Source: Candidatus Tayloriibacteriota bacterium
GTDB taxonomy: Bacteria; Patescibacteriota; Minisyncoccia; Phycocordibacterales; PALSA-1337
DNA length: 64,000 nucleotides
Direction of reading: 5' to 3'
NCBI GenBank assembly: GCA_943350765.1
Contig: CALRAJ010000003.1
Location: forward strand, 65,456-129,455
The notes under the pieces were generated by a model. It was given only the letters and a program-made list of their open reading frames with translations, made no database searches and was not told the DNA's origin. Below, piece after piece: positions 3,834 to 64,000 of the stretch. Made by a program: the position numbers and the translations under genes. The first letter of the stretch is position 1. The number at the start of each line of letters is the position of its first letter.

Positions 3834-4766
3834 TTATACCGCATGTTTTTCTACCCTTACTCCTGCCATAACCTTGGCTATTTCTTCTCTGGTTGGGGCT
3901 TTTACATCCCATACTAGACCGAGTTTTTTAAGTAAGCAAATAAACCACCAGCTCGGGTCAATCTGCCACCAAAATAGACCTTGTTTTGCAGACCATTGCC
4001 ATTTGTGATGATTATTGTGCCAGCCTTCACCAAAAGCAAATATCGCACAAAGGAGATTGTTACGACTGTGGTCGCCCGTAGCAAAGGGTCGCGTTCCCCA
4101 GAGATGGCAAATGGAGTTGATGCTCCATGTGATATGGTGTACTAGGCATACCCTTACAAAAAACCCCCACAGAAGTCCGAGTACTGCCCCTTCCCACGAA
4201 AAGCTGGTGAGTACCCAGCCAAAGAGTGTTGGAAGTAATGCACTCAAGATAATCCAAGAGACAAAATGACGATCTAGAAAAACAGAAATAGGGTCATTTC
4301 GAAGTCGTTGTATGGCGTATCTTTCTTCAGGCTTACCGACACTAAATATCCAGCCAGTGTGAGAATGCCAAAGTCCTCGTAGACTATTCCAAAAACCTTT
4401 TCCCTGTAGATGGGGAGAATGGTCATCACCCTCCGTATCACTGTGTACATGGTGCTTTCGATGCCGAAAACACCACTCAAACAAGCTACCATTTAATGCC
4501 ATTCCACCTGCGATTCCGAGCAAAAGTCGTATAGTGGGGTAGGTTTTAAATGAGTTGTGTGTAAAGAGACGATGGTAACCCACCGTGATTCCACCTAGTC
4601 CTGTGATAATATAAAACAGGATAAGGTTGCTGAGTTCTACTCTAGTAATACCCCAGCCCCACATTCTGATCATTGCCACAAGTACTCCTAAGAGAGGTAG
4701 AAATACCGCAACAAAAACCATTATTTTTTCAAGCGAAACTGGCCGAGTTTTATTCAAGGTTTTCAT
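3834..4766 (-). CDS. acyl-CoA (stearoyl) delta-9 fatty-acid desaturase
   Basis: Three His boxes (HRLFTH, HRKHH, HNNHH) and four TM segments. Confidence 0.85.
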   Translation of the reverse strand: MKTLNKTRPVSLEKIMVFVAVFLPLLGVLVAMIRMWGWGITRVELSNLILFYIITGLGGITVGYHRLFTHNSFKTYPTIRLLLGIAGGMALNGSLFEWCFRHRKHHVHSDTEGDDHSPHLQGKGFWNSLRGLWHSHTGWIFSVGKPEERYAIQRLRNDPISVFLDRHFVSWIILSALLPTLFGWVLTSFSWEGAVLGLLWGFFVRVCLVHHITWSINSICHLWGTRPFATGDHSRNNLLCAIFAFGEGWHNNHHKWQWSAKQGLFWWQIDPSWWFICLLKKLGLVWDVKAPTREEIAKVMAGVRVEKHAV

Positions 4767-4844: not shown

Positions 4845-6155
4845 GTGTTGTATACTAAACATACAGTGGAAAAAAGTAAAAAAGATTTCAATGGACTAAT
4901 TGTCGCTAGTATTGTTGGAGGTGTTTTTGTGATTGCACTTGGAGTTTTTTATATTTTTCCAAACCAGATACTGTACGCATTAGTGGCAATCAAAGGGGCG
5001 GGTATTCAGCTGGCGTCTGTTGTCCTGAGGCATGATTTTAGGTCTGTGGCAGAAATTAAATCTAATTATGCTGATGCAATAAATACCAATAGCTCCCTAC
5101 AAACCCAAAAGAAGGTCCGTATACTTATAGTTCCTGGACATGAGCCAGGCTATGGTGGCTCAGAGTACGCCTCCCTAAAAGAGAGGGATATGACCGTAGA
5201 GCTGGGCATGTATTTGCGAAAGTTTTTGGAAAATGATTCTCATTACGAAGTCTTTATTACTCGTGATACAGAAGTCTGGCATCCAGACTTTACAATGTAT
5301 TTTAAAAATAATTGGACTGATATTGCGGAATGGACAAAGGCGTCTCGAGAGGAATTTTCTAGTTTGGTGTCATTGGGATCGGTGGCGAGAACAGTTTCGA
5401 CGGTCGTACATAACAACGCTCCTAAATCCGTCGCACTTCGTCTCTATGGTATTACCAAGTGGGCAAATGAGAATGCAATCGACATCACTATCCATATCCA
5501 TTTTAATGACAACCCTAGACGCAATACAAGTATAGCTGGTAAGTACTCTGGTTTTTCAATATATGTGCCAGCAAGCCAGTACGGCAATAGTTCGACCACA
5601 AGGGTTATTGCAAGTACGATTTTTAATCGTTTGGGAAAGTACAATTCAGTCAGCAATCTCAAGGGGGAATCAGTTGGAATTATCGATGAGCCAGATTTGA
5701 TCGCTATAGGGGCAAATAACACAGCCGATTCAGCGAGTATGTTGATTGAGTATAGTTATATTTATGAGCCACAATTTCAGGATTCACAAGTGAGTAGTTT
5801 GGCAATAAAAGATTTAGCATTTCAGACATACTTAGGTCTGCAGGACTTTTTTGACCCGAGTACTTCTGCTACACGGAGTCTACCTGACACATCTATTTTG
5901 CCTTATGAGTGGAGTGGTACTTTGTTGGATTATAATTCCTCAGGTCAAGAAGTGTATGCTTTGCAGACAGCAATGATGGGTGATGGCGTCTATCCTCCTC
6001 TCGGTAAAGATAAAAACGATTGTTCTCGAAGTGGTGGTTTTGGTCCTTGTACGCGAGCCTCGCTTGAAGCTTTTCAAAATAAGTACAAAATCACTGGTGA
6101 AACAGGGGTGGTAGGGAAGAAGACCTTGGTGGTGTTGAAGGGGTTGGATTTATAG
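4845..6155 (+). CDS. cell-wall amidase (N-acetylmuramoyl-L-alanine amidase-like) with C-terminal peptidoglycan-binding domain
   Basis: N-terminal TM anchor. Amidase_3-like IHIHFND motif. The C-terminal GQEVYALQTAMMGDG...LEAFQNKYKITGETGVVGKKTL resembles PG_binding_1. Confidence 0.55.
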   Translation: MLYTKHTVEKSKKDFNGLIVASIVGGVFVIALGVFYIFPNQILYALVAIKGAGIQLASVVLRHDFRSVAEIKSNYADAINTNSSLQTQKKVRILIVPGHEPGYGGSEYASLKERDMTVELGMYLRKFLENDSHYEVFITRDTEVWHPDFTMYFKNNWTDIAEWTKASREEFSSLVSLGSVARTVSTVVHNNAPKSVALRLYGITKWANENAIDITIHIHFNDNPRRNTSIAGKYSGFSIYVPASQYGNSSTTRVIASTIFNRLGKYNSVSNLKGESVGIIDEPDLIAIGANNTADSASMLIEYSYIYEPQFQDSQVSSLAIKDLAFQTYLGLQDFFDPSTSATRSLPDTSILPYEWSGTLLDYNSSGQEVYALQTAMMGDGVYPPLGKDKNDCSRSGGFGPCTRASLEAFQNKYKITGETGVVGKKTLVVLKGLDL

Positions 6156-8740: not shown

Positions 8741-10220
8741 TTACCTATGACCGACTCGCGTACTAGCTTTTAGTATAAATCTATTTCCGATGCCCTTTTC
8801 GTGCTAATCAGAATGATTTTACTAACCAATGAGGTGATTTTTCCCCTAATCAGACTTCACCATAGACTTTACCTTGCCTGCTGGGGTTTTCCCCTTAATC
8901 GGACTCGCCGCTGTGCTGCATAATAGGCCTTTTGGCTTGTTGTTTGTGGTGTGCCTGAGAGAACTCGACTGGAGTGGGCTTCCAATACCGTGTTCTAGTG
9001 CCAATGAGGTCCACTAGAACACGGTACTTTCTGCCTAGCTTAGTCGCTCATTGTGTCCTCCTTTGGCTACAGGTGGCTAGTATTGCCGGCGTCTCATGAC
9101 ACCACCACCCTACATCCAAAAGACAGTATATACTATCTGCGGTACATTTGTCAAGTATTACTAACATTTTTCATGACTAAGGCTATATTACTAGCCATAT
9201 TTTCATATAAATCAACGATTAATAGCCATTTTAAGTGTTTTTAATAAATGACAGAATTATTTTATTAAGAATTATAAAAATAATATGTCAAAGAAATACT
9301 AATAATGTTATATCTCAATAACACTTATATATGTATAAATAGCTTTAAATAAGGATATCATGGTATTTAAAAACGAGAAGTGTCAAAAAGGCTTGACAAA
9401 AATACTGTATCGTGTATACTCATGCACAGATTGATTTTTGATTGCGTTGGGTACTTCTTTGTGTTTCTTTAAAAAACTTCTCGGCCTCCCAGTAATACAG
9501 TGGGGTTTTAAAGAGAACATTTTTGAGAAGCACAAAGAAGTATCCAATTTTATACCAAAATGCACATCATGAGTGATGGCACAACCATGACCCACGCTGA
9601 GTGGCTCGCATGGTTGCGCGGGGAGTAGAAGTACTTCCTATGCTGCGATTGCAGAAATGTGATACGCGGGGTTTGGGTGTCTACCTGGCAAAATAAGGAC
9701 ACAGCAGATCAGAAACAATCAACGGAGAATTTTAAGATTCTCCACTTCATTGGGTTTACAACATTGTGTTGCAAATCCATAGAGTTTAGCTCTTTGAATA
9801 AAAACATTAGGTGTCTGCACTAAATTGTGTTTATGAGAAATGAGAAAGTATAAACATAGCTTAGTGCAGATACTTTGCATGTATCCGAGCACCAGTATCA
9901 CTGATGTGGTGATACGAAGGAAAGTAGGTATATCGTTTGTCGATCCAACAAACTCGCAGGGGGAAATCCTCGGAGTATTGATGGTTGATAAACGAGCCTG
10001 ACGGTACAGAGAACGGCTCTGATTACCGGACTTACTGAGCCCTAAACAGTTATTAGGCTGTTATGGGGGAGGGTAATAACTCCCGCTGACGAAAAGCTAT
10101 CGTCAGTACTTGGTGGATGAATGATCCCAGTGGATCGTTCGGAGGTTGTAGATAGGTCGCGACCTGTCTAGCCTCCACTGCATATAGTTTATTTCGATGC
10201 CCCCAGACACATGGTCTGGG

Positions 10221-12228: not shown

Positions 12229-12314
12229 CCATTTAAAACTGCCATATAAGTATGGCGGAGCACGGGTCACGGCTTGGCAACAGAATTGTGACAAATAAAT
12301 CTTGGTGTGCAGAA

Positions 12315-12397
12315 ACATGTGATGATACAGCATTATAAATGTATCCGTAATTCCTCGGTGAAGTTCCGAGGCGCCTGACGAGCGGAAATTGTTGGGG
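12315..12397 (+). repeat. composite intergenic repeat, blocks X plus Y, copy 1, continuous with HHR4
   Basis: acatgtgatgatacagcattataaatgtatccgtaat followed by hairpin ccucggugaaguuccgagg and cgccugacgagcggaaauuguugg. The same blocks recur at 16278-16384 and partly at 12854-12907. Confidence 0.55.
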
Positions 12398-29588: not shown

Positions 29589-29870
29589 ATGGATGTTAAA
29601 AAAATTAAGGAACAATTAGAAAGAGAAAGTTTCAAGCATGTTTTTGAGTGGGAAGATGCACCTGATATTGAGTATCAAAAGCACTCTCATAAAGACAAGG
29701 TGGTTTTCTATATAGTTTATGGCGGTGTGACTATGTATTTCGGAGACAAGACACTTGAGTTTAAAAAAGGCGATCGTTTTGATGTTCCGGTTGGGATTGA
29801 ACATACAGCAAAAGTAGGGAATCAGGGTTGTAAATGGGTGGTAGGAGAGATGATTGAGGGTGACGCTTAG
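29589..29870 (+). CDS. cupin-domain protein
   Basis: 93 aa with GDKTLEFKKGDRFDVPVGIEHTAK, a cupin_2-like beta-barrel signature. Confidence 0.5.
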   Translation: MDVKKIKEQLERESFKHVFEWEDAPDIEYQKHSHKDKVVFYIVYGGVTMYFGDKTLEFKKGDRFDVPVGIEHTAKVGNQGCKWVVGEMIEGDA

Positions 29871-29884
29871 TCGCTCAACCAAGC

Positions 29885-29925
29885 CATTTGAACGGCTCAA
29901 CAGGCGTGTTGAGCCGTTCAAATTC
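29885..29925 (+). terminator. palindromic hairpin catttgaacggctcaacag-gcg-tgttgagccgttcaaattc
   Basis: Perfect inverted repeat. Same family as 7838-7873. Confidence 0.5.
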
Positions 29926-30172
29926 AGATAAATTCTAAAATAAGAGCTTCTATCCTATTGACAGATAGTTAAGACTGGTATATAATGTATATAGAATTTT
30001 GAGTCATTGAAAATATGCAAATTCGCCACAGCTTTGGCCTCGAAAGGGCTTTTGAGTCGAAAGCTGTGGCGAAACATCATCTTTTTCGGAACACTCTTCT
30101 TGGTGGGTTTGGTAGTAAACCAAGGCACGCGAAGACTCCAGAAAAAATGGTGCAATAGCCGGCAAAAACACA

Positions 30173-30823
30173 ATGAGCAATCAAAACAATCAGACCGCAG
30201 CTGCTATCGGGGCTATCACAAACGCGGTGGACTGGGAAGCCCAAGGTCTCAACCTCCAGGCTATCGTCGAGGCTGGAAACCAAGGCAAGCTTGGTGGCCC
30301 GCTCACGAAGTGGTTCATCGAGTATGGCTGGCTTACCCCGGCGCAAGCGATGAAAGTCGAAGTCCTGCCGAAAGACGCAGAGCTTCCCAATGGCATCATC
30401 TCCATCAACCGCACCACTCCGCTTCGGCATCCCGAATGGGTGAAAGAACCTCTCTACGACGAGAGCATGGGTCCGGCCGAGATCGACCCATCGAAAGCCG
30501 AGCAGTGGCTCCACGACAGCCAGAAAACTGGTGTCGTCACCGGCACGGTAATCCACGATTATCTTGTCGAGAAAAAGATGATCGAGAGTTGCTATGGCCT
30601 CCGCGAATTGCTCGCCATCCAGGCCAAAGGCATCGCCTACTTCCGCAAGCATTTCAAAGGCATGGCCGTCTTCGGCTGGAAGGGCACGGTGCGGCATCGC
30701 GACGACAACCTTCACGTCCCGTATCTCGTCGATGACGGCGGCAAGGTCATCCTGCACTGGTACTGGCTCGACAACGACTGGAGTTCCCGCAACCCCGCCC
30801 TTCGCGTCGCAAGTGGCTCTTGA
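30173..30823 (+). CDS. hypothetical protein in GC-rich islet
   Basis: 216 aa. The GC-rich segment starts abruptly near 30000. Overlapping antisense ORFs are probably artefacts. The 3' end is duplicated at 31204-31331. Confidence 0.4.
   Translation: MSNQNNQTAAAIGAITNAVDWEAQGLNLQAIVEAGNQGKLGGPLTKWFIEYGWLTPAQAMKVEVLPKDAELPNGIISINRTTPLRHPEWVKEPLYDESMGPAEIDPSKAEQWLHDSQKTGVVTGTVIHDYLVEKKMIESCYGLRELLAIQAKGIAYFRKHFKGMAVFGWKGTVRHRDDNLHVPYLVDDGGKVILHWYWLDNDWSSRNPALRVASGS
30686..30812 (+). repeat. direct repeat DR1 (3' end of ORF 30173-30823)
   Basis: About 127 bp, near-identical to 31204-31331. Confidence 0.6.
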
Positions 30824-30872
30824 GCCCTTGGATACTCGGGCACTTCGGGTCCTTGGACCCTTTGTGCTTTGA

Positions 30873-30910
30873 CCCTCCGCACTGAAAAGTGTGTGAGGGT
30901 TTTCTTTTTA
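30873..30910 (+). terminator. rho-independent terminator
   Basis: ccctccgcac tgaaaa gtgtgtgaggg followed by ttttcttttt. Confidence 0.45.
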
Positions 30911-31203
30911 TACTGAAGACAATATGCTAAAATTCTTAGTGGTAGTAGGTGAATATGCGGGCGGTCAAGGCTTCCCGCTACCGAACCCAGTATCCATGAG
31001 CTGAGAGCGTCTGCGGTCACGGCTTCAGACGGAGGGCTCATGCCGTCTACAGGTGCCTATCATGGACTTGTAGGCTAGACACTTCAAAAAAAGAAGTTAC
31101 TTGGTGAAGAGGACTGGTGCATTATGATGCAAAATACGATTCAACTCTGAGATCGCTACGGGGCTTCGAGGGGTGGTGTTACAGATGGTCTTCTTCACAA
31201 TAC

Positions 31204-31331
31204 GACGGTGCGGCATCGCGACGACAACCTTCACGTCCCGTATCTCTACGATGACGGCGACAAGGTCATCCTGAACTGGAACTGGCTCGACAACGACTGG
31301 AGTTCCCGCAACCCCGCCCTTCGCGTCGCAA
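31204..31331 (+). repeat. direct repeat DR2 (truncated second copy of the ORF 3' end)
   Basis: Encodes TVRHRDDNLHVPYLYDDGDKVILNWNWLDNDWSSRNPALRVA. There are 4 nonsynonymous differences from DR1. Confidence 0.6.
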
Positions 31332-31392
31332 CTCACTTCATTTCCCAGTGCCACAAAATGTGGCGCTGGGTTTTTTATGTTATTATTTTATT

Positions 31393-32193
31393 ATGTCTTT
31401 TAAATACCTCGATATTCACTCCCACCTCCAAATGTCAGAGTATGATGCTGATCGGGAAGCCGTACTTGCACGGATGAAAGAGGCTGGGGTGGGGACTATT
31501 GTAGTGGGAGTAGACTACGAGAGTTCTAAACGGGCGGTGGAGCTCGCAGAAAAACATGCTGAAATATACTCTTGTATTGGCTTACACCCAAAAGATAATC
31601 TAGCGGAGGTATTTGATGTTGAAGCATATAGAAAACTCACTCAAAATCCAAAGGTCGTAGCGATAGGGGAATGCGGGCTCGACTTTTTCCGCATGGAGGG
31701 CGACTCAGGAAAAGTCGAAGAAACAAAGTCTCGTCAGAAGCAACTTTTTATACAACAAATCGAGCTGGCGATAGCGGTAGGTATACCCCTCATGCTTCAC
31801 TGTCGTGACGCCTACCGAGAAGTGCTGGATATACTTATTCCTTATAAAAAAGAGGCGGGGGAGAGACTGTATGGCGATGTACACTTTTTCGCTGGCGATA
31901 CAGAGACAGCGCGAGAGTTTATCGAGCTTGGTTTTTCTTTGTCTTTTACTGGGGTAATCACTTTTGCTCGCAATTATGACGAGGTTATTCGTTCTATACC
32001 ACTCGAAAGCATTCTTTCCGAGACAGACGCACCTTTTGTGGCACCAATACCATATCGAGGCAAGCGGAATGAGCCTGCCTATGTGGTTGAGGTGGTAAGA
32101 AAGCTTGCCGAGATACGCGGGGAAGATTTTGAGAAAGTCCGTACTCAGCTCCTTGAGAACACAAGACGAGTGTTTGGTCTATCACTCCTATAG
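31393..32193 (+). CDS. tatD: TatD-family metal-dependent deoxyribonuclease/hydrolase
   Basis: YLDIHSHL and AIGECGLDF motifs. Start taken at MSFKYLD. Confidence 0.75.
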   Translation: MSFKYLDIHSHLQMSEYDADREAVLARMKEAGVGTIVVGVDYESSKRAVELAEKHAEIYSCIGLHPKDNLAEVFDVEAYRKLTQNPKVVAIGECGLDFFRMEGDSGKVEETKSRQKQLFIQQIELAIAVGIPLMLHCRDAYREVLDILIPYKKEAGERLYGDVHFFAGDTETAREFIELGFSLSFTGVITFARNYDEVIRSIPLESILSETDAPFVAPIPYRGKRNEPAYVVEVVRKLAEIRGEDFEKVRTQLLENTRRVFGLSLL

Positions 32194-59740: not shown

Positions 59741-60836
59741 AATAAAAACGCCCTAGTATATACTATCCGTTACCTGAATATGTTGAAGAATCACTTTAAA
59801 AAGCGCTAAAGATAACGGATATTTTTCTGTTGTTTTTAGAACCGCTTAAAAAAGCGGATTTTTGTTTCCAAAAAGGAAACACCCAACCGAATGGTGCGAG
59901 GTTTAGGGCTAAATCATTCACGAAGGCGAATGATCGCCCGACTCCACGAAATGGAGTTTAGGGTCCAGAAACGACCGTCACTTTGAAAAATAAATCCTAT
60001 CGTCGTATCAACTTGCGGTGTACTCTTTTGGGTATACGCGTGGGTCTTTTCGGTACGATAGATAGCTGTACTGCGGAAACGCAGTACAAAACCTTTATCA
60101 GGTTTTCAATCAGGATCTGGTAAAGCGAATTGGTAAGTCTGTGGGGAGAAATCTTCACAGACAATTGTAAGTAAATAATTGTGGTTTTTAAATTTCCTAA
60201 TAGGAAATTAAGAGCATATGGTGGATGCCTTGACTTGAAGAGGCGATGAAGGACGCGGTCTGGCTGCGATAAGCTTCGGGGAGGTGCCTAGCAACCTTTG
60301 ATCCGAAGATTTCCGAATGGGGAAACCCCTCGTGCTTGACACGAGACTCTGTAGCAATACAGAGAGCATACCCAGGGAAGTAAAACATTTCATTACCTGG
60401 TGGAAAAGAAAACAATGTCCGCAAGGACAATATTTCCTAAGTAGCGGCGAGCGAAAAGGAAAGAGCCCAAACCGAAGCATCACGGTGAGTGTGATAGATG
60501 AGGCGAAAGTCGAAAGTACGAAGTCTAAGGTCGATTCAAAATGCAAACACTATGCATTTGAGTTCACTTTTGACTTTTAGGCTTAGGACTTTCGACTTGT
60601 GCATCGTACCCAGCGTGATGCTTCGGGGTTGTAAGGTGAGAGCGTTCTATTTATAGAAGTAGAGTTAAAAAATAGTGTATTAGCTTAAATATCTGAAAAG
60701 ATATACCCTAGAAGGTTATAGTCCCGTAAGCGAAAATATACTATCTCTATTGTTCTCATTCTTGAGTACCTCGAGACACGAATGGCTCGGGGGAATCTGC
60801 CGGAACTAACCGGTAAGGCTAAATACTCTTCAAGAT

Positions 60837-60875
<39 letters not shown>

Positions 60876-61630
60876 GCCCGTCAAGGGCGGTGAAATAGAC
60901 CTGAAACCATATGCTTACAAGGAGTAGAAGCGGTGTCTCGCTTGTGCGAGGAAAAATAAAGAATGTATGTATTGAATTATTCTCCCTTTTTTAAAGGGAG
61001 CAGGCTCCATGCCGAGGGATTTAAATTTCAAATCCCTCCGCGCCAGAGTACTGTCGGTGCTCCCTTTAAAAAAGGGAGAATTTAATACAACAGCTTTTGA
61101 TTTTTATTCGTAAAAGTGAGACACCGTGACTGCGTGCCTATTGAAGAATGAGCCAACGAGTTAATGTATGCTGCAAGCTAAGTCCTTTACCGGATGGAGC
61201 TTCAGGGAAACCGAGTGTTAATAGCGCGTCTGTAGTATACATTAGACCCGAAGCCAGGTGAGCTTGTCATGCGCAGGGTGAACTCTCGAGAAATCGAGAG
61301 GGAGGCCCGAACCGGTGAGCCGTTCAATACTCTCGGATGACGTGTGATAAGGAGTGATAAGCTAATCGAACCTGGTAATAGCTGGTTCTCTCCGAAATAG
61401 CTTTTGGGCTAGCGTCGGAATTACCTTTGAGGGGTAGAGCACTGGAAGGTCTTGACAGGTCGAAAGATCCCGAGACCTATCAAACTCCGAATACTCAGAG
61501 TAAATTTTCCGGCAGTTAGACTGTGGGGGCTAAGCTCCATTGGTCAAAAGGGAAACAGCCCGGATCTCCATTTAAGGTCCCTAAATCTATGTTAAGTACG
61601 CTTAAGGTGGTAAGTTTTCTCAAACAATGA

Positions 61631-61662
<32 letters not shown>

Positions 61663-62610
61663 GAAAGCGTAACAGCTCACTCATCGAGAGAATTTGCGCC
61701 GCAGATAATCGGGGTTAAACATAGTACCGAAACTGAGGATTGCATATGTCTTCGGACGTATGCACTGGTAGGAGAGTATTCGCAACTGCACTGAAGGTAA
61801 AGGGGTGACCCATACTGGAGCGTTGCGAAGTAAGAATGTTGGCACAAGTAACCACAATGCAGGTGAGATACCTGCACGCCGAAAGACCAAGGATTCCTTG
61901 GCTATGTAAATCAGCCAAGGGTTAGTCGGGCCTAAGGGAATGGCGAAAGCCGTACTCGATGGACACATGGTTAATATTCCATGACGTATTTTGTGTGCGA
62001 CGGGATGACGAAGAGTAGTATGTATAGCGCATTATTGGATTTGCGTTTGTGTCGTCAGGGTGATTTCCAGGAAAATCCGGAAGTCTGTGTTTAATCACGC
62101 TCCAAGCGATATGAAGATGCTCGGGTTCGCTCGGGTAAATTGTACAAAGCACACTTTCAAGAAAAATCTCTAAGCATAACGCAAAGTACACCGTACCGCA
62201 AACCGACACAGGTGGTCAGCTCGAGTAGAGTAAGGCGAACGAGTGATTTTTCTCCAAGGAACTCGGCAAAAAAGCAGCCGTAACTTCGGAATATGGCTTG
62301 CCCGAGCATCACATGGGGTGTGATGCAGGCAAAAGTCGAAAGGTCGTAAGTCTGAAAGTCGGGATCCCGACTTTATGGACTCTATACTTTTAACTTTTGA
62401 CTCGTGCATCGCGCTTCGCGCGATGCTCGGGCCGCAGCGAAAGTATCCCTGGCAACTGTTTATCAAAAACACAGCTCCCTGCGAACTCGTAAGAGGATGT
62501 ATAGGGGGTGACACTTGACCAATGCCAGAAGGTCAAACGACGGCGGTGCTATGGTCGCAAGATTGTAGTGCTGGATGTTGTAAGCCCTGGTGAATGTCGG
62601 CCGTAACTAT

Positions 62611-63438
62611 AGACATGACCGTTGTAGTTACGCAAATAAATCTTGCCATATGCTGGAAACTCTGGCTTCACCTTCAATTTGGAGATGAAGAAAAAAGTGT
62701 TTATTACTACTCGCTTTGTCGAAAAGCAGTGACAATGTAATAACGCAGACAATCAGCAGGAAAGACTTCTTCTGTAATCAAAAATAAAATGGATTGGCTA
62801 CGCCAAATCAAACCGGATATGGGAAACTATATCGCAGGGTTCACGGATGGTGAAGGAAGTTTCAACATTTCAGTGAAAAAGAGAATTGATTACAAAGATC
62901 ATTGGAAGTTGACAGCCTCATTTAATATCTCTCAAAAAGACCGTGTTATCCTTGCTCTCATAAAAAAGGAGCTTGGGTGCGGGACTCTGCGAGAGAGAAA
63001 AGACGGAGTTGTTTACTACGAAGTGACTAACATCACTTCATTGAAAGAAAGAATTATTCCGTTTTTTAAACGGTTTGGTTTTCTTTCAGCACGGAAAAAA
63101 ACAAATTTCTCCATCTTTTCGACAATTGTCGAAAAGATGGAGAAAGGAGAACATCTGACAGATGAAGGTTTTCTGAAAATTCTAGAATTGAGAGAAACTC
63201 TCAATGAAGGAAGGGGAAGAAAACGTAAGTATAATTTATCAGATTGTATATCAAAAGAAGAATCCTCAGAGACTATACGCAAGACGGTTTCAAATCAATT
63301 GGAAGTCGACGATTTGAGAACGATGATATAGTCCGACCTTTGTGGCGACACAAAGATTAACAAAAAAGCAGAATCTTTGATAAACAGAGACTAGTTAAAT
63401 AAGTCGAAATAGTATGAGTGCATTGCTACTACATTATG
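62611..63438 (+). mobile_element. group I intron in 23S rRNA (domain IV, near E. coli positions 1915-1917)
   Basis: Exon junction ccgtaactat|...|aacggtcctaaggtagcgaaattcc reconstitutes the conserved AACUAUAACGGUCC. The exon ends in U, the intron ends in G, and the intron carries a LAGLIDADG ORF. Confidence 0.75.
62789..63331 (+). CDS. LAGLIDADG homing endonuclease (single-motif type)
   Basis: IAGFTDGEGSFNISV motif; 180 aa; sits inside the intron. Confidence 0.8.
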   Translation: MDWLRQIKPDMGNYIAGFTDGEGSFNISVKKRIDYKDHWKLTASFNISQKDRVILALIKKELGCGTLRERKDGVVYYEVTNITSLKERIIPFFKRFGFLSARKKTNFSIFSTIVEKMEKGEHLTDEGFLKILELRETLNEGRGRKRKYNLSDCISKEESSETIRKTVSNQLEVDDLRTMI

Positions 63439-64000
63439 AACGGTCCTAAGGTAGCGAAATTCCTTGTCAGGTAAGTTCTGACGTGCACGAATAGTGTAAT
63501 GACTGGGGAACTGTCTCGGAGAATAGCTCGGTGAAAATACAGTACCGGTGAAGATGCCGGTTACCTGCAGTTAGACGAAAAGACCCTAGAAGCTTTACTG
63601 CAGCTTGATATTGAGCATATGTTTTTGATGCGTAGCGTAGATGGGAGGATTTGAAGTGTATCTCTCGGGGTGCATGGATCCGCAAGTGAAATACCATTCT
63701 TTAAAAATATATGTTCTAACCTGTACGGCAAAAACGCACAGGGACATTATCTGGTGGGCAGTTTTAGTGGGGCGCTATCCTCCTAAAGAGTAACGGAGGA
63801 GTTTATTAAGGTCAGCTAGGCGCGAATGGAAACCGTGCCGATAGTGTAATGGCATAAGCTGGCTTAACTGTGAGGCGTACTTGCCAAGCAGATGCGAAAG
63901 CAGAACATAGTGAACCGACCATTCGCATTAGACGCGGTGGAAGATTATCGGATAAAAGCTACTCTAGGGATAACAGGCTGGTTGTGCCTAAGAGTTCATA

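Follow-up and report, generated by a model that had tools for sequence, protein, structure and literature searches.

The 64-kb stretch of Candidatus Tayloriibacteriota contig CALRAJ010000003.1 analysed here (hereafter 'the window') contains a short GC-rich islet between a cupin gene and tatD, with about 30 kb of sequence on either side. This islet is almost certainly a diversity-generating retroelement (DGR) module, consisting of the target and template half of an element of the type common in bacteria of the Patescibacteria, or candidate phyla radiation (CPR). The assignment is carried by differences between a template repeat (TR) and a variable region (VR) that are directed to adenines of the template, by a conserved RNA structure, by relatives in which the complete architecture is present, and by variation in the protein family that is confined to the VR. 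The reverse transcriptase (RT) and the Avd protein encoded by complete relatives are missing from the window, and on balance it is probable that both were lost by deletion, leaving a copy that is now a static or decaying orphan.

A repeated gene end with adenine-directed differences

The segment 30686-30812 (copy 1) recurs at 31205-31331 (copy 2) as a direct repeat of 127 nt that is 96% identical, with a start-to-start distance of 519 nt. An initial annotation of this DNA had reported a 127-bp direct repeat here, which is real, although its second copy starts at 31205 and not at 31204. A 43-nt core of the repeat occurs at these two sites only in the window, with no third copy, and none is expected from shuffled sequence. 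Copy 1 lies within an open reading frame (ORF) of 216 codons at 30173-30823, present as initially annotated, and the repeat ends 11 nt short of the stop codon.

The two copies differ at five positions. At four of these, copy 2 carries A (31248, 31260, 31274 and 31280) opposite T, G, C and T, respectively, in copy 1 (30729, 30741, 30755 and 30761), while the fifth, which adjoins an adenine mismatch, is a change from T in copy 2 (31247) to G in copy 1 (30728). No mismatch has A on the copy 1 side, and the probability of at least four of five mismatches falling on A by chance is 0.0097. Each of the five affects the first or second position of its codon; the copy 2 codons changed are TAC, GAC, AAC and AAC, and the five nucleotide differences produce four amino acid differences (V/Y, G/D, H/N and Y/N); alignment of the copies thus bears out the earlier count of four amino-acid-changing differences. 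Directional, adenine-specific mismatches of this kind indicate that copy 1 is the VR and copy 2 the TR of a DGR. Indeed, the VR lies inside a coding region, its columns are those that are hypervariable throughout the protein family, and its end is GC-rich (CCCCGCCCTTCGCGTCGCAA).

The elements of the islet are listed below in window coordinates; TR-RNA denotes the separate RNA that carries the TR, H1 to H10 its helices, and L numbers the related loci described in the next section.

29958-29986, + strand: target-gene promoter, TTGACA-17 nt-TATAAT, a sigma-70-type sequence agreeing with the consensus at 12 of 12 positions and lying inside a promoter-plus-leader profile match at 29955-30171
29995-30172, + strand: 5' leader of the target gene, about 175 nt, its start placed from the promoter
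30173-30823, + strand: DGR target gene, the 216-residue ORF, from an uncharacterised Patescibacteria family
30686-30812, + strand: VR, encoding the last ~43 residues but four of the target protein, 96% identical to 31205-31331
30810-30868, + strand: two hairpins directly 3' of the VR, at about 30810-30830 and 30840-30867, conserved in L001, L003 and L004
30871-30909, + strand: target-gene terminator, stem ACCCTCCGCAC...GTGTGAGGGT and then a T-run
30924-30932, + strand: candidate extended -10 element of the TR-RNA (TGCTAAAAT), TGnTAnAnT-like, 7-8 nt before the conserved GGTAGTAGG start
30938-31200, + strand: structured 5' domain of the TR-RNA, with H1-H6 at 30941-31051 and H8-H10 at 31104-31198
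31089-31097, + strand: 5' strand of helix H7 (AAAAGAAGT), pairing with 31335-31343
31205-31331, + strand: TR, with A at 31248, 31260, 31274 and 31280 and T at 31247
31332-31343, + strand: post-TR motif of 12 nt (CTCACTTCATTT), whose last 9 nt (31335-31343) are the 3' strand of H7
31344-31376, + strand: post-TR stem-loop (31344-31370) and T-run, with a 12-bp stem containing eight GC pairs

Relatives of the islet carry complete DGRs

Scans of species-representative genomes and metagenomes yielded about 100 loci, all on Patescibacteria-type contigs. Wherever a downstream copy of the gene end is present it lies 320-390 nt past the VR, and the VR/TR pairs usually contain 11-26 mismatches, almost all at TR adenines. 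In L001, a locus from another metagenome-assembled genome (MAG) that is 80% identical to the islet over 30014-31354, this holds for 15 of 16 mismatches, and in the distant L006 for 14 of 15. About 25 further loci display the same adenine pattern, with almost no mismatch having A on the VR side.

Complete relatives share the order target (+), about 260 nt of structured RNA, TR, stem-loop, avd (-) and RT (+). There are about 14 loci with avd and RT after the TR, the RT gene lying approximately 330 nt downstream of it. The avd product belongs to bAvd (PF22296), with matches to NF033474 at E-values of 3e-13 and 7e-10 that are below that family's cut-off, and the RT is an RVT_1 protein with LPLGNLTSQ and YxDD motifs. 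Moreover, near-identical members of the target family from different samples vary inside the VR only (clusters 3, 5, 7 and 10), which shows the family to be actively diversified in nature. Solo family genes on long contigs were also compared with TRs of complete DGRs from their own metagenome, and no match was found.

By analogy with the Bordetella-phage element, the module would work as follows. The target gene carries the VR, and the separate non-coding RNA downstream, made up of a base-paired scaffold of about 260 nt, the TR and a brief conserved tail that ends in a terminator stem-loop, would supply the TR. An RT-Avd complex would bind this TR-RNA and copy the TR into complementary DNA (cDNA), misincorporating opposite template adenines, and the cDNA would then replace the VR, resulting in an altered C-terminal surface of the target protein.

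Composition, borders and origin of the islet

From about 0.40, the GC content climbs to 0.52-0.59 over 30050-30950, in agreement with the abrupt composition jump and GC-rich islet first noted, and averages 0.557 in the cassette against 0.423 in its flanks. The cassette has a foreign look, being richer in GC than the host in most low-GC genomes and standing in gene neighbourhoods that differ between genomes. Contigs of five other assemblies (ERZ27280192, GCA_943354485.1, ERZ27265269, ERZ27265266 and ERZ27265268) are 99.9-100% identical over the islet stretches that they cover, and several contigs from other assemblies span the islet and both flanks; this identity indicates that the arrangement is not an assembly artefact. 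An empty site was sought via exact copies of the cupin protein. The islet was present on every contig that reaches the site, no islet-free relative was found, and none of the contigs with exact cupin copies had an uninterrupted 216-residue ORF without copy 2 at the cupin/tatD site. A repeat search of the window revealed no target duplication, at a length of at least 14 nt, on the flanks of the islet, and a Pfam search of 20 window ORFs gave no integrase or transposase near it. A spread of the cassette as cDNA of a read-through transcript was considered and rejected, since the cassettes are homologous in the promoter as well.

Three other accounts of the islet were weighed against a DGR module. 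An ordinary tandem duplication of only the 3' end of the gene, in a horizontally acquired fragment, kept alike by recombination and involving no retroelement, would be in keeping with direct repeats 519 bp apart that differ at only five positions, with the GC-rich composition and with the lack of a nearby RT. As a description, the foreign fragment with a tandem partial duplication proposed at the outset is adequate, but it leaves unexplained the adenine-specific, directional differences here and in more than 25 related loci, the conserved structured RNA between the copies, the relatives with Avd and a DGR RT immediately downstream, and the population variation confined to the VR, and we regard such an origin as very improbable. 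The model preferred in the initial annotation, in which a mobile element enters a host gene at its 3' end and supplies a substitute for that end, deserves slightly less credence still. It would fit the different neighbourhoods (cupin/tatD here, RNase J/L20 in L001), and a cassette lying within rpoD 3'-end repeats in L026 (see below) suggests that such cassettes may insert at gene ends. The repeated segment is, however, part of the cassette's own gene rather than of a resident one, the ORF, RNA and TR are conserved as a single cassette with its own promoter, complete relatives carry Avd and RT, neither a flanking duplication nor a recombinase gene of the kinds sought was found, and the adenine-specific mismatches would have no explanation. 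What survives of that model is that copy 2 is a template for rewriting the 3' end of the gene, although the data do not support its arrival there with an inserting element.

The least probable account, to which we attach next to no weight, is an assembly chimera or collapsed repeat, also raised initially. The abrupt change in composition could be cited for it, as could the fact that a number of contigs in other assemblies break close to the islet's left border (29885-29942). As far as assemblies can show, it is refuted by the identical contigs in five independent assemblies, several of which span both flanks; the same cassette is moreover found in other species, and the breaks coincide with a perfect 17-bp inverted repeat at 29886-29923, which is the cupin terminator. 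Contigs from two other assemblies stop at 29885 and 29911 and another begins at 29942, a clustering which indicates that assemblers tend to break at this inverted repeat.

The template RNA has a conserved, covarying scaffold

The extended -10 element was read from an alignment of 11 loci and is present in most of them; its sequence and position suggest that it is the TR-RNA promoter. Its placement before the conserved start points to an independent transcript of about 435 nt, running from ~30939 to ~31376. Promoter and terminator sequences of its own accompany the TR-RNA in every locus.

The sequence between the repeats, which had been described as possibly structured, does contain a conserved RNA scaffold. 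The scaffold of about 260 nt is conserved between loci whose proteins are only ~40% identical, and RNAalifold analysis identified compensatory changes in 37 of 59 pairs. In an alignment of 12 loci with ten helices, 96.3% of cells were paired and 39 of 64 pairs were compensatory; no structure as good was obtained in 500 shuffles, and slid controls were 37-49% paired. The single-sequence fold was consistent with this structure (z = -2.4). The inverted repeat previously seen at 31096-31198 is also real and corresponds to helix H8, in which 31104-31115 pairs with 31187-31198. A scaffold profile used with nhmmer found the domain solely directly upstream of TRs. Covariance-model scanning of the intervening sequence, as initially proposed, returned no relevant Rfam family: nothing pertinent to the islet emerged from the window or from 29850-31450, no match of 30938-31380 reached the gathering threshold, and the best match in the E-value scan was IMES-3, at 16 bits against a threshold of 55 bits. 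An extra scaffold hairpin of ~32 nt at about 31046-31077, after H4, is peculiar to the window and absent from all 11 other loci.

The long-range helix H7 encloses H8-H10 and the TR. In the alignment 89.8% of its cells are paired, and three of its nine pairs carry changes in both partners. Thus pair 195/453 occurs as AU in eight loci, UA in three and CG in one, and a second pair occurs as GC and as AU. The post-TR motif, from which the 3' strand of H7 is drawn, is kept in all TR-bearing loci, RT present or not, and in every locus a hairpin followed by GTTTTG stands at the post-TR position. The stem-loop at this position is read as the TR-RNA terminator; it also occupies the place of the Avd-binding stem-loop of other DGRs and may, by analogy, have a role in binding. 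Both RNA cis-elements of DGRs, a stem-loop after the TR and a duplex bridging it, are thus present at the level of sequence. The tatD gene starts at 31393, 17 nt past the TR-RNA terminator. Copy 2 had been stated to continue directly into the region upstream of tatD, but the 12-nt motif and the stem-loop with its T-run (31344-31376) intervene.

The target gene and its product

The target-gene promoter is conserved together with the cassette in L001, L004 and L034. The leader that follows it holds a long hairpin with 37-nt arms (30010-30046 and 30049-30085) and, in a comparison of the window with the same three loci, is more strongly conserved than the coding sequence. It has no match in Rfam, and the promoter-plus-leader profile matched close relatives only when searched with nhmmer.

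No Pfam or NCBIfam family was matched by the target protein. The protein search suggested in the initial annotation did produce homologues, all from an unannotated Patescibacteria family: a word-indexed search returned 54 and an exhaustive profile search 1148 representative clusters at 50% identity. The last ~45 residues of the family are hypervariable at fixed columns. An AlphaFold2 model contains a confident alpha/beta domain at residues 81-210 (predicted local distance difference test scores of 88-97). Foldseek gave no significant match to it (best E-values of 0.64 in the PDB and 0.53 in BFVD, a library of predicted viral structures), the best matches being weak ones to C-type-lectin-like structures, the usual fold of DGR variable proteins, with target-normalised template-modelling scores (TMt) of 0.35-0.46. 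A profile search against PDB sequences likewise returned nothing relevant.

The DNA fold of 30800-30915, which includes the two hairpins 3' of the VR, has a predicted energy of -21.7 kcal/mol (z = -4.7), and none of 200 shuffles was as stable. By analogy with other DGRs, these hairpins may act as the target-recognition stem-loop; judged from the sequence, the hairpin and GC-rich element characteristic of the 3' end of a DGR VR is present here. The terminator noted earlier after the ORF was recovered as a terminator-like hairpin at about 30871-30909. It is at this terminator (window 30917) that homology with the TR-less relatives L003 and L004 stops.

An antisense ORF of 226 residues (30077-30757, - strand) overlaps the target gene and in L116 is annotated in place of the 216-residue ORF. 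The high GC content of the sequence probably accounts for this ORF, as an artefact.

Absence of RT and Avd from the window

A motif scan of the window revealed no YxDD-containing ORF of at least 150 residues, tblastn of the window with four RTs of the clade and two Avds gave no match, and Pfam analysis of 20 window ORFs identified no RT. Neither an RT in cis nor an Avd was thus found within the 64 kb. A candidate RT, P0128, was examined as a protein of the same genome and rejected, since it belongs to another. In a profile search the RT clade comprised at least 7998 proteins at E <= 1e-60.

The window is not alone in this respect. Five other distinct loci lack the RT and retain an intact scaffold and TR (L001, L013/L043, L021, L067 and L010/L037), and RT-less modules with clean, adenine-only mismatches account for 6 of the ~21 distinct loci with a TR to which a state could be assigned.

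Orphan module or trans-served satellite

We favour, with modest confidence, the reading that the window copy lost its RT and Avd genes by deletion and is now static or decaying. Loci of the family can be arranged in a decay series. RT ORFs are broken in L044, L046 and L084, and the RT is cut to about 130 nt in L073/L077; avd persists as a remnant alone in L010 and is degenerate in L021, an indication that RT-less modules arise by deletion; the TR is cut to about 45 nt in L057 and the scaffold to its first 120-140 nt in L024 and L027; and the series ends with some 35 solo genes. A set of 28 'hot' adenine columns was defined, in which the majority of TRs have A and VRs are frequently altered. 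Of these adenines, 8 are missing from the window TR, 7 from L001, 5 from L013 and 10 from the RT-truncated L073, against losses of 0-3 in 14 of 14 RT-bearing loci (Fisher p = 0.006, in samples that are not fully independent because the window and L001 share ancestry). Only 4 of the 28 TR adenines differ in the window VR, compared with about half elsewhere (P = 9e-5 under p = 0.5). Finally, the window VR is identical in all contigs found and the 90%-identity cluster of the protein has one member. VR variants among otherwise identical genomes were found for the family and none at this locus; the protein of the RT-less L010 is likewise identical on six contigs.

The main rival is that the module still works: an RT-Avd encoded elsewhere in the genome, beside another TR-RNA, would diversify the 216-residue ORF, recognising the template RNA via the shared scaffold, the long-range helix and the post-TR stem-loop, so that one enzyme would run several template RNAs. 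This is a real possibility, if rather less than an even one, and a number of observations favour it and weigh against loss. The scaffold, TR, tail, terminator and both promoters of the window copy are fully intact, and modules without an RT have no greater share of non-adenine mismatches (7 of 88) than complete modules do (20 of 293). Clean RT-less modules are, moreover, a sizeable part of the TR-bearing loci (the 6 of ~21 above). The window and L001 are both RT-less and their cassettes end at nearly the same point, yet their gene contexts differ; their scaffolds are 87.5% identical with compensatory changes, while the ORF upstream of the VR is 77% identical. The two TRs differ at 12 sites, and at every one of them the VR of each cassette agrees with the TR of the same cassette. 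Such concerted evolution points to long-lasting transfer from TR to VR, possibly without a local RT. Since the TR-RNA is always a separate transcript in this clade, with its own promoter and terminator in every locus, it would always be delivered to the proteins in trans, and a supply of RT-Avd in trans is mechanistically easy; indeed, avd, TR and brt of the Bordetella phage element work when expressed in trans (PMC5758913). Solo genes lacking a TR within 8 kb nonetheless vary, and do so in the VR only. The size of the RT clade makes a second DGR in the genome plausible, and the absence of RT and Avd applies to the 64-kb window, which is a part of the genome. The uniformity of the VR must also be read with care, as assemblies with identical VRs may derive from one site and consensus assemblies mask minor VR variants.

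Against a supply in trans stand the lack of RT and Avd for 30 kb on either side, the invariant VR in all assemblies found and in the 90% cluster, the invariant L010 protein, a TR that is short of hot adenines to an extent comparable with the RT-truncated L073, the mere four adenines changed in the VR, and the avd remnants of L010 and L021. Together with the decay series, these points incline us towards deletion and an orphan state for the window copy. A more general form of the alternative is that RT-less cassettes of target, scaffold RNA and TR are working satellites, several template RNAs being served by one RT-Avd elsewhere in a small CPR genome, and that they move between genomes as GC-rich units of 1.4 kb. 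Each satellite template RNA would then be recognised via the same ~260-nt scaffold and be paired with its own diverged target gene. We hold this general form to be slightly more doubtful than the working state of the window copy itself.

Comparison with known DGR systems

According to Wu et al. (2018; NAR, PMC5758913), architecture B3 makes up 90% of CPR DGRs. Relatives of the islet, like the CPR and DPANN elements of this architecture, have target, TR, avd and RT as their sole components, with an order of avd and TR unlike that in Bordetella, and the arrangement of the relatives described here, target (+), TR (+), avd (-) and RT (+), would correspond to it. The hosts are also alike, the relatives being found in Patescibacteria MAGs, and the target lacks a known domain, as do most CPR targets in the same source. 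The window copy differs from CPR B3 elements in having neither avd nor RT. The covarying scaffold of ~260 nt 5' of the TR is not mentioned in the portion of that paper available to us and is absent from Rfam.

The DGR of the Bordetella phage BPP-1 (mtd, avd, TR and brt) resembles the islet in transferring TR sequence, with changes specific to adenines, into a VR at the 3' end of a ligand-binding protein gene and in having a GC-rich VR end followed by hairpins. Its RNA has an Avd-binding stem-loop 3' of the TR and a 'cPRT Stop' duplex bridging the TR (bioRxiv 10.1101/2023.10.23.563531), to which the stem-loop at 31344-31370 and H7 would correspond by position. The BPP-1 element differs in having the avd coding sequence upstream of the TR and a spacer of 140 nt after it, whereas the window has a dedicated non-coding scaffold upstream and its RNA ends about 45 nt after the TR; furthermore, the relatives carry avd on the opposite strand, and the window has no RT or Avd in cis. 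No priming site was identified in the window TR-RNA.

DGR enzymes are known to act on VRs remote from the RT gene, avd, TR and brt being functional in trans (PMC5758913). The VR-only variation of solo members of the target family resembles this situation. In the remote targets so described, however, the TR stays by the RT, whereas in the window the TR and scaffold stay by the target and it is the RT that is missing. Wu et al. also report that over half of their candidate DGRs were dropped on account of stops, truncations or poor TR-VR matches (PMC5758913). The target family includes a comparable decay series, but the window copy differs from such inactivated or incomplete elements in having lost the enzymes cleanly, with every RNA and DNA cis-element intact. 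No description of orphan or RT-less TRs was found in the literature searched.

Implications

An unexplained repeat is now recognisable as a DGR module. The islet is in itself a further DGR of known CPR type, and it is the RNA scaffold and the indicators of decay that are of wider interest. DGR search tools start from the RT, and RT-less modules consequently escape them; the ~260-nt scaffold, which covaries strongly and has no Rfam model, could be used to find CPR-type DGR template RNAs directly. The family spans all stages from complete element to solo gene, and the loss of hot adenines from the TR tracks the loss of the RT, which offers an indicator of a live DGR from sequence. If RT-less modules were indeed supplied in trans, a single enzyme would work with several template RNAs, and counts of DGR repertoires in small genomes would change. 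The target family, with more than 1000 representative clusters at 50% identity, has no annotation and no structural relative detected in the PDB or BFVD.

Other arrangements in the family and the window

In L026 (Saccharibacteria MAG contig CAZFSV010000001.1), a complete cassette of target, TR, avd and RT (2750 nt) lies between 53-nt direct repeats that are 94% identical (9534-9586 and 12284-12336). The repeats are the 3' end of an upstream rpoD-like gene, and the RT ORF terminates in the duplicated rpoD tail (...SHEKIARLKNYFD); from the sequence, it looks as if the whole cassette was inserted at the 3' end of a gene. In L005 two copies of the final 100 nt of a leuS-like gene (3925-4024 and 4625-4724, 82% identical) flank a ParE toxin/antitoxin pair, an insertion at a gene 3' end with a replacement end and hence the pattern that had initially been envisaged for the islet.

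L004 (4249-4962, - strand, and 5029-5807), and likewise L003, contain a second gene of 237 codons, transcribed divergently from the cassette's promoter and leader, which are duplicated there in inverted orientation. Its product has a VR-like C-terminus (...GNLYVLYLFWDGQRWRFGYQWLYSDWRGSCPA), and no TR or RT was found within several kb of either gene of the pair. The gene for P0002 has 85-nt inverted repeats on both sides and is in inverted orientation relative to L001. In L058 (10840-11100) a scaffold RNA and a TR-like segment unlike the adjacent VR are followed by a second promoter and a second scaffold start (ATGGTAATAGGTAAATATG), which suggests tandem template cassettes. The target-family profile matches P0209 (792 residues) and P0210 (658 residues) in three separate stretches, and each of these proteins may contain three tandem target domains of ~150 residues.

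Elsewhere in the window, a 23S rRNA match at 60345-64000 covers model positions 1-2504 within 3656 nt, which implies about 1.1 kb of insertions, and the region contains an ORF of 180 residues (62789-63331), a feature typical of CPR rRNA introns.

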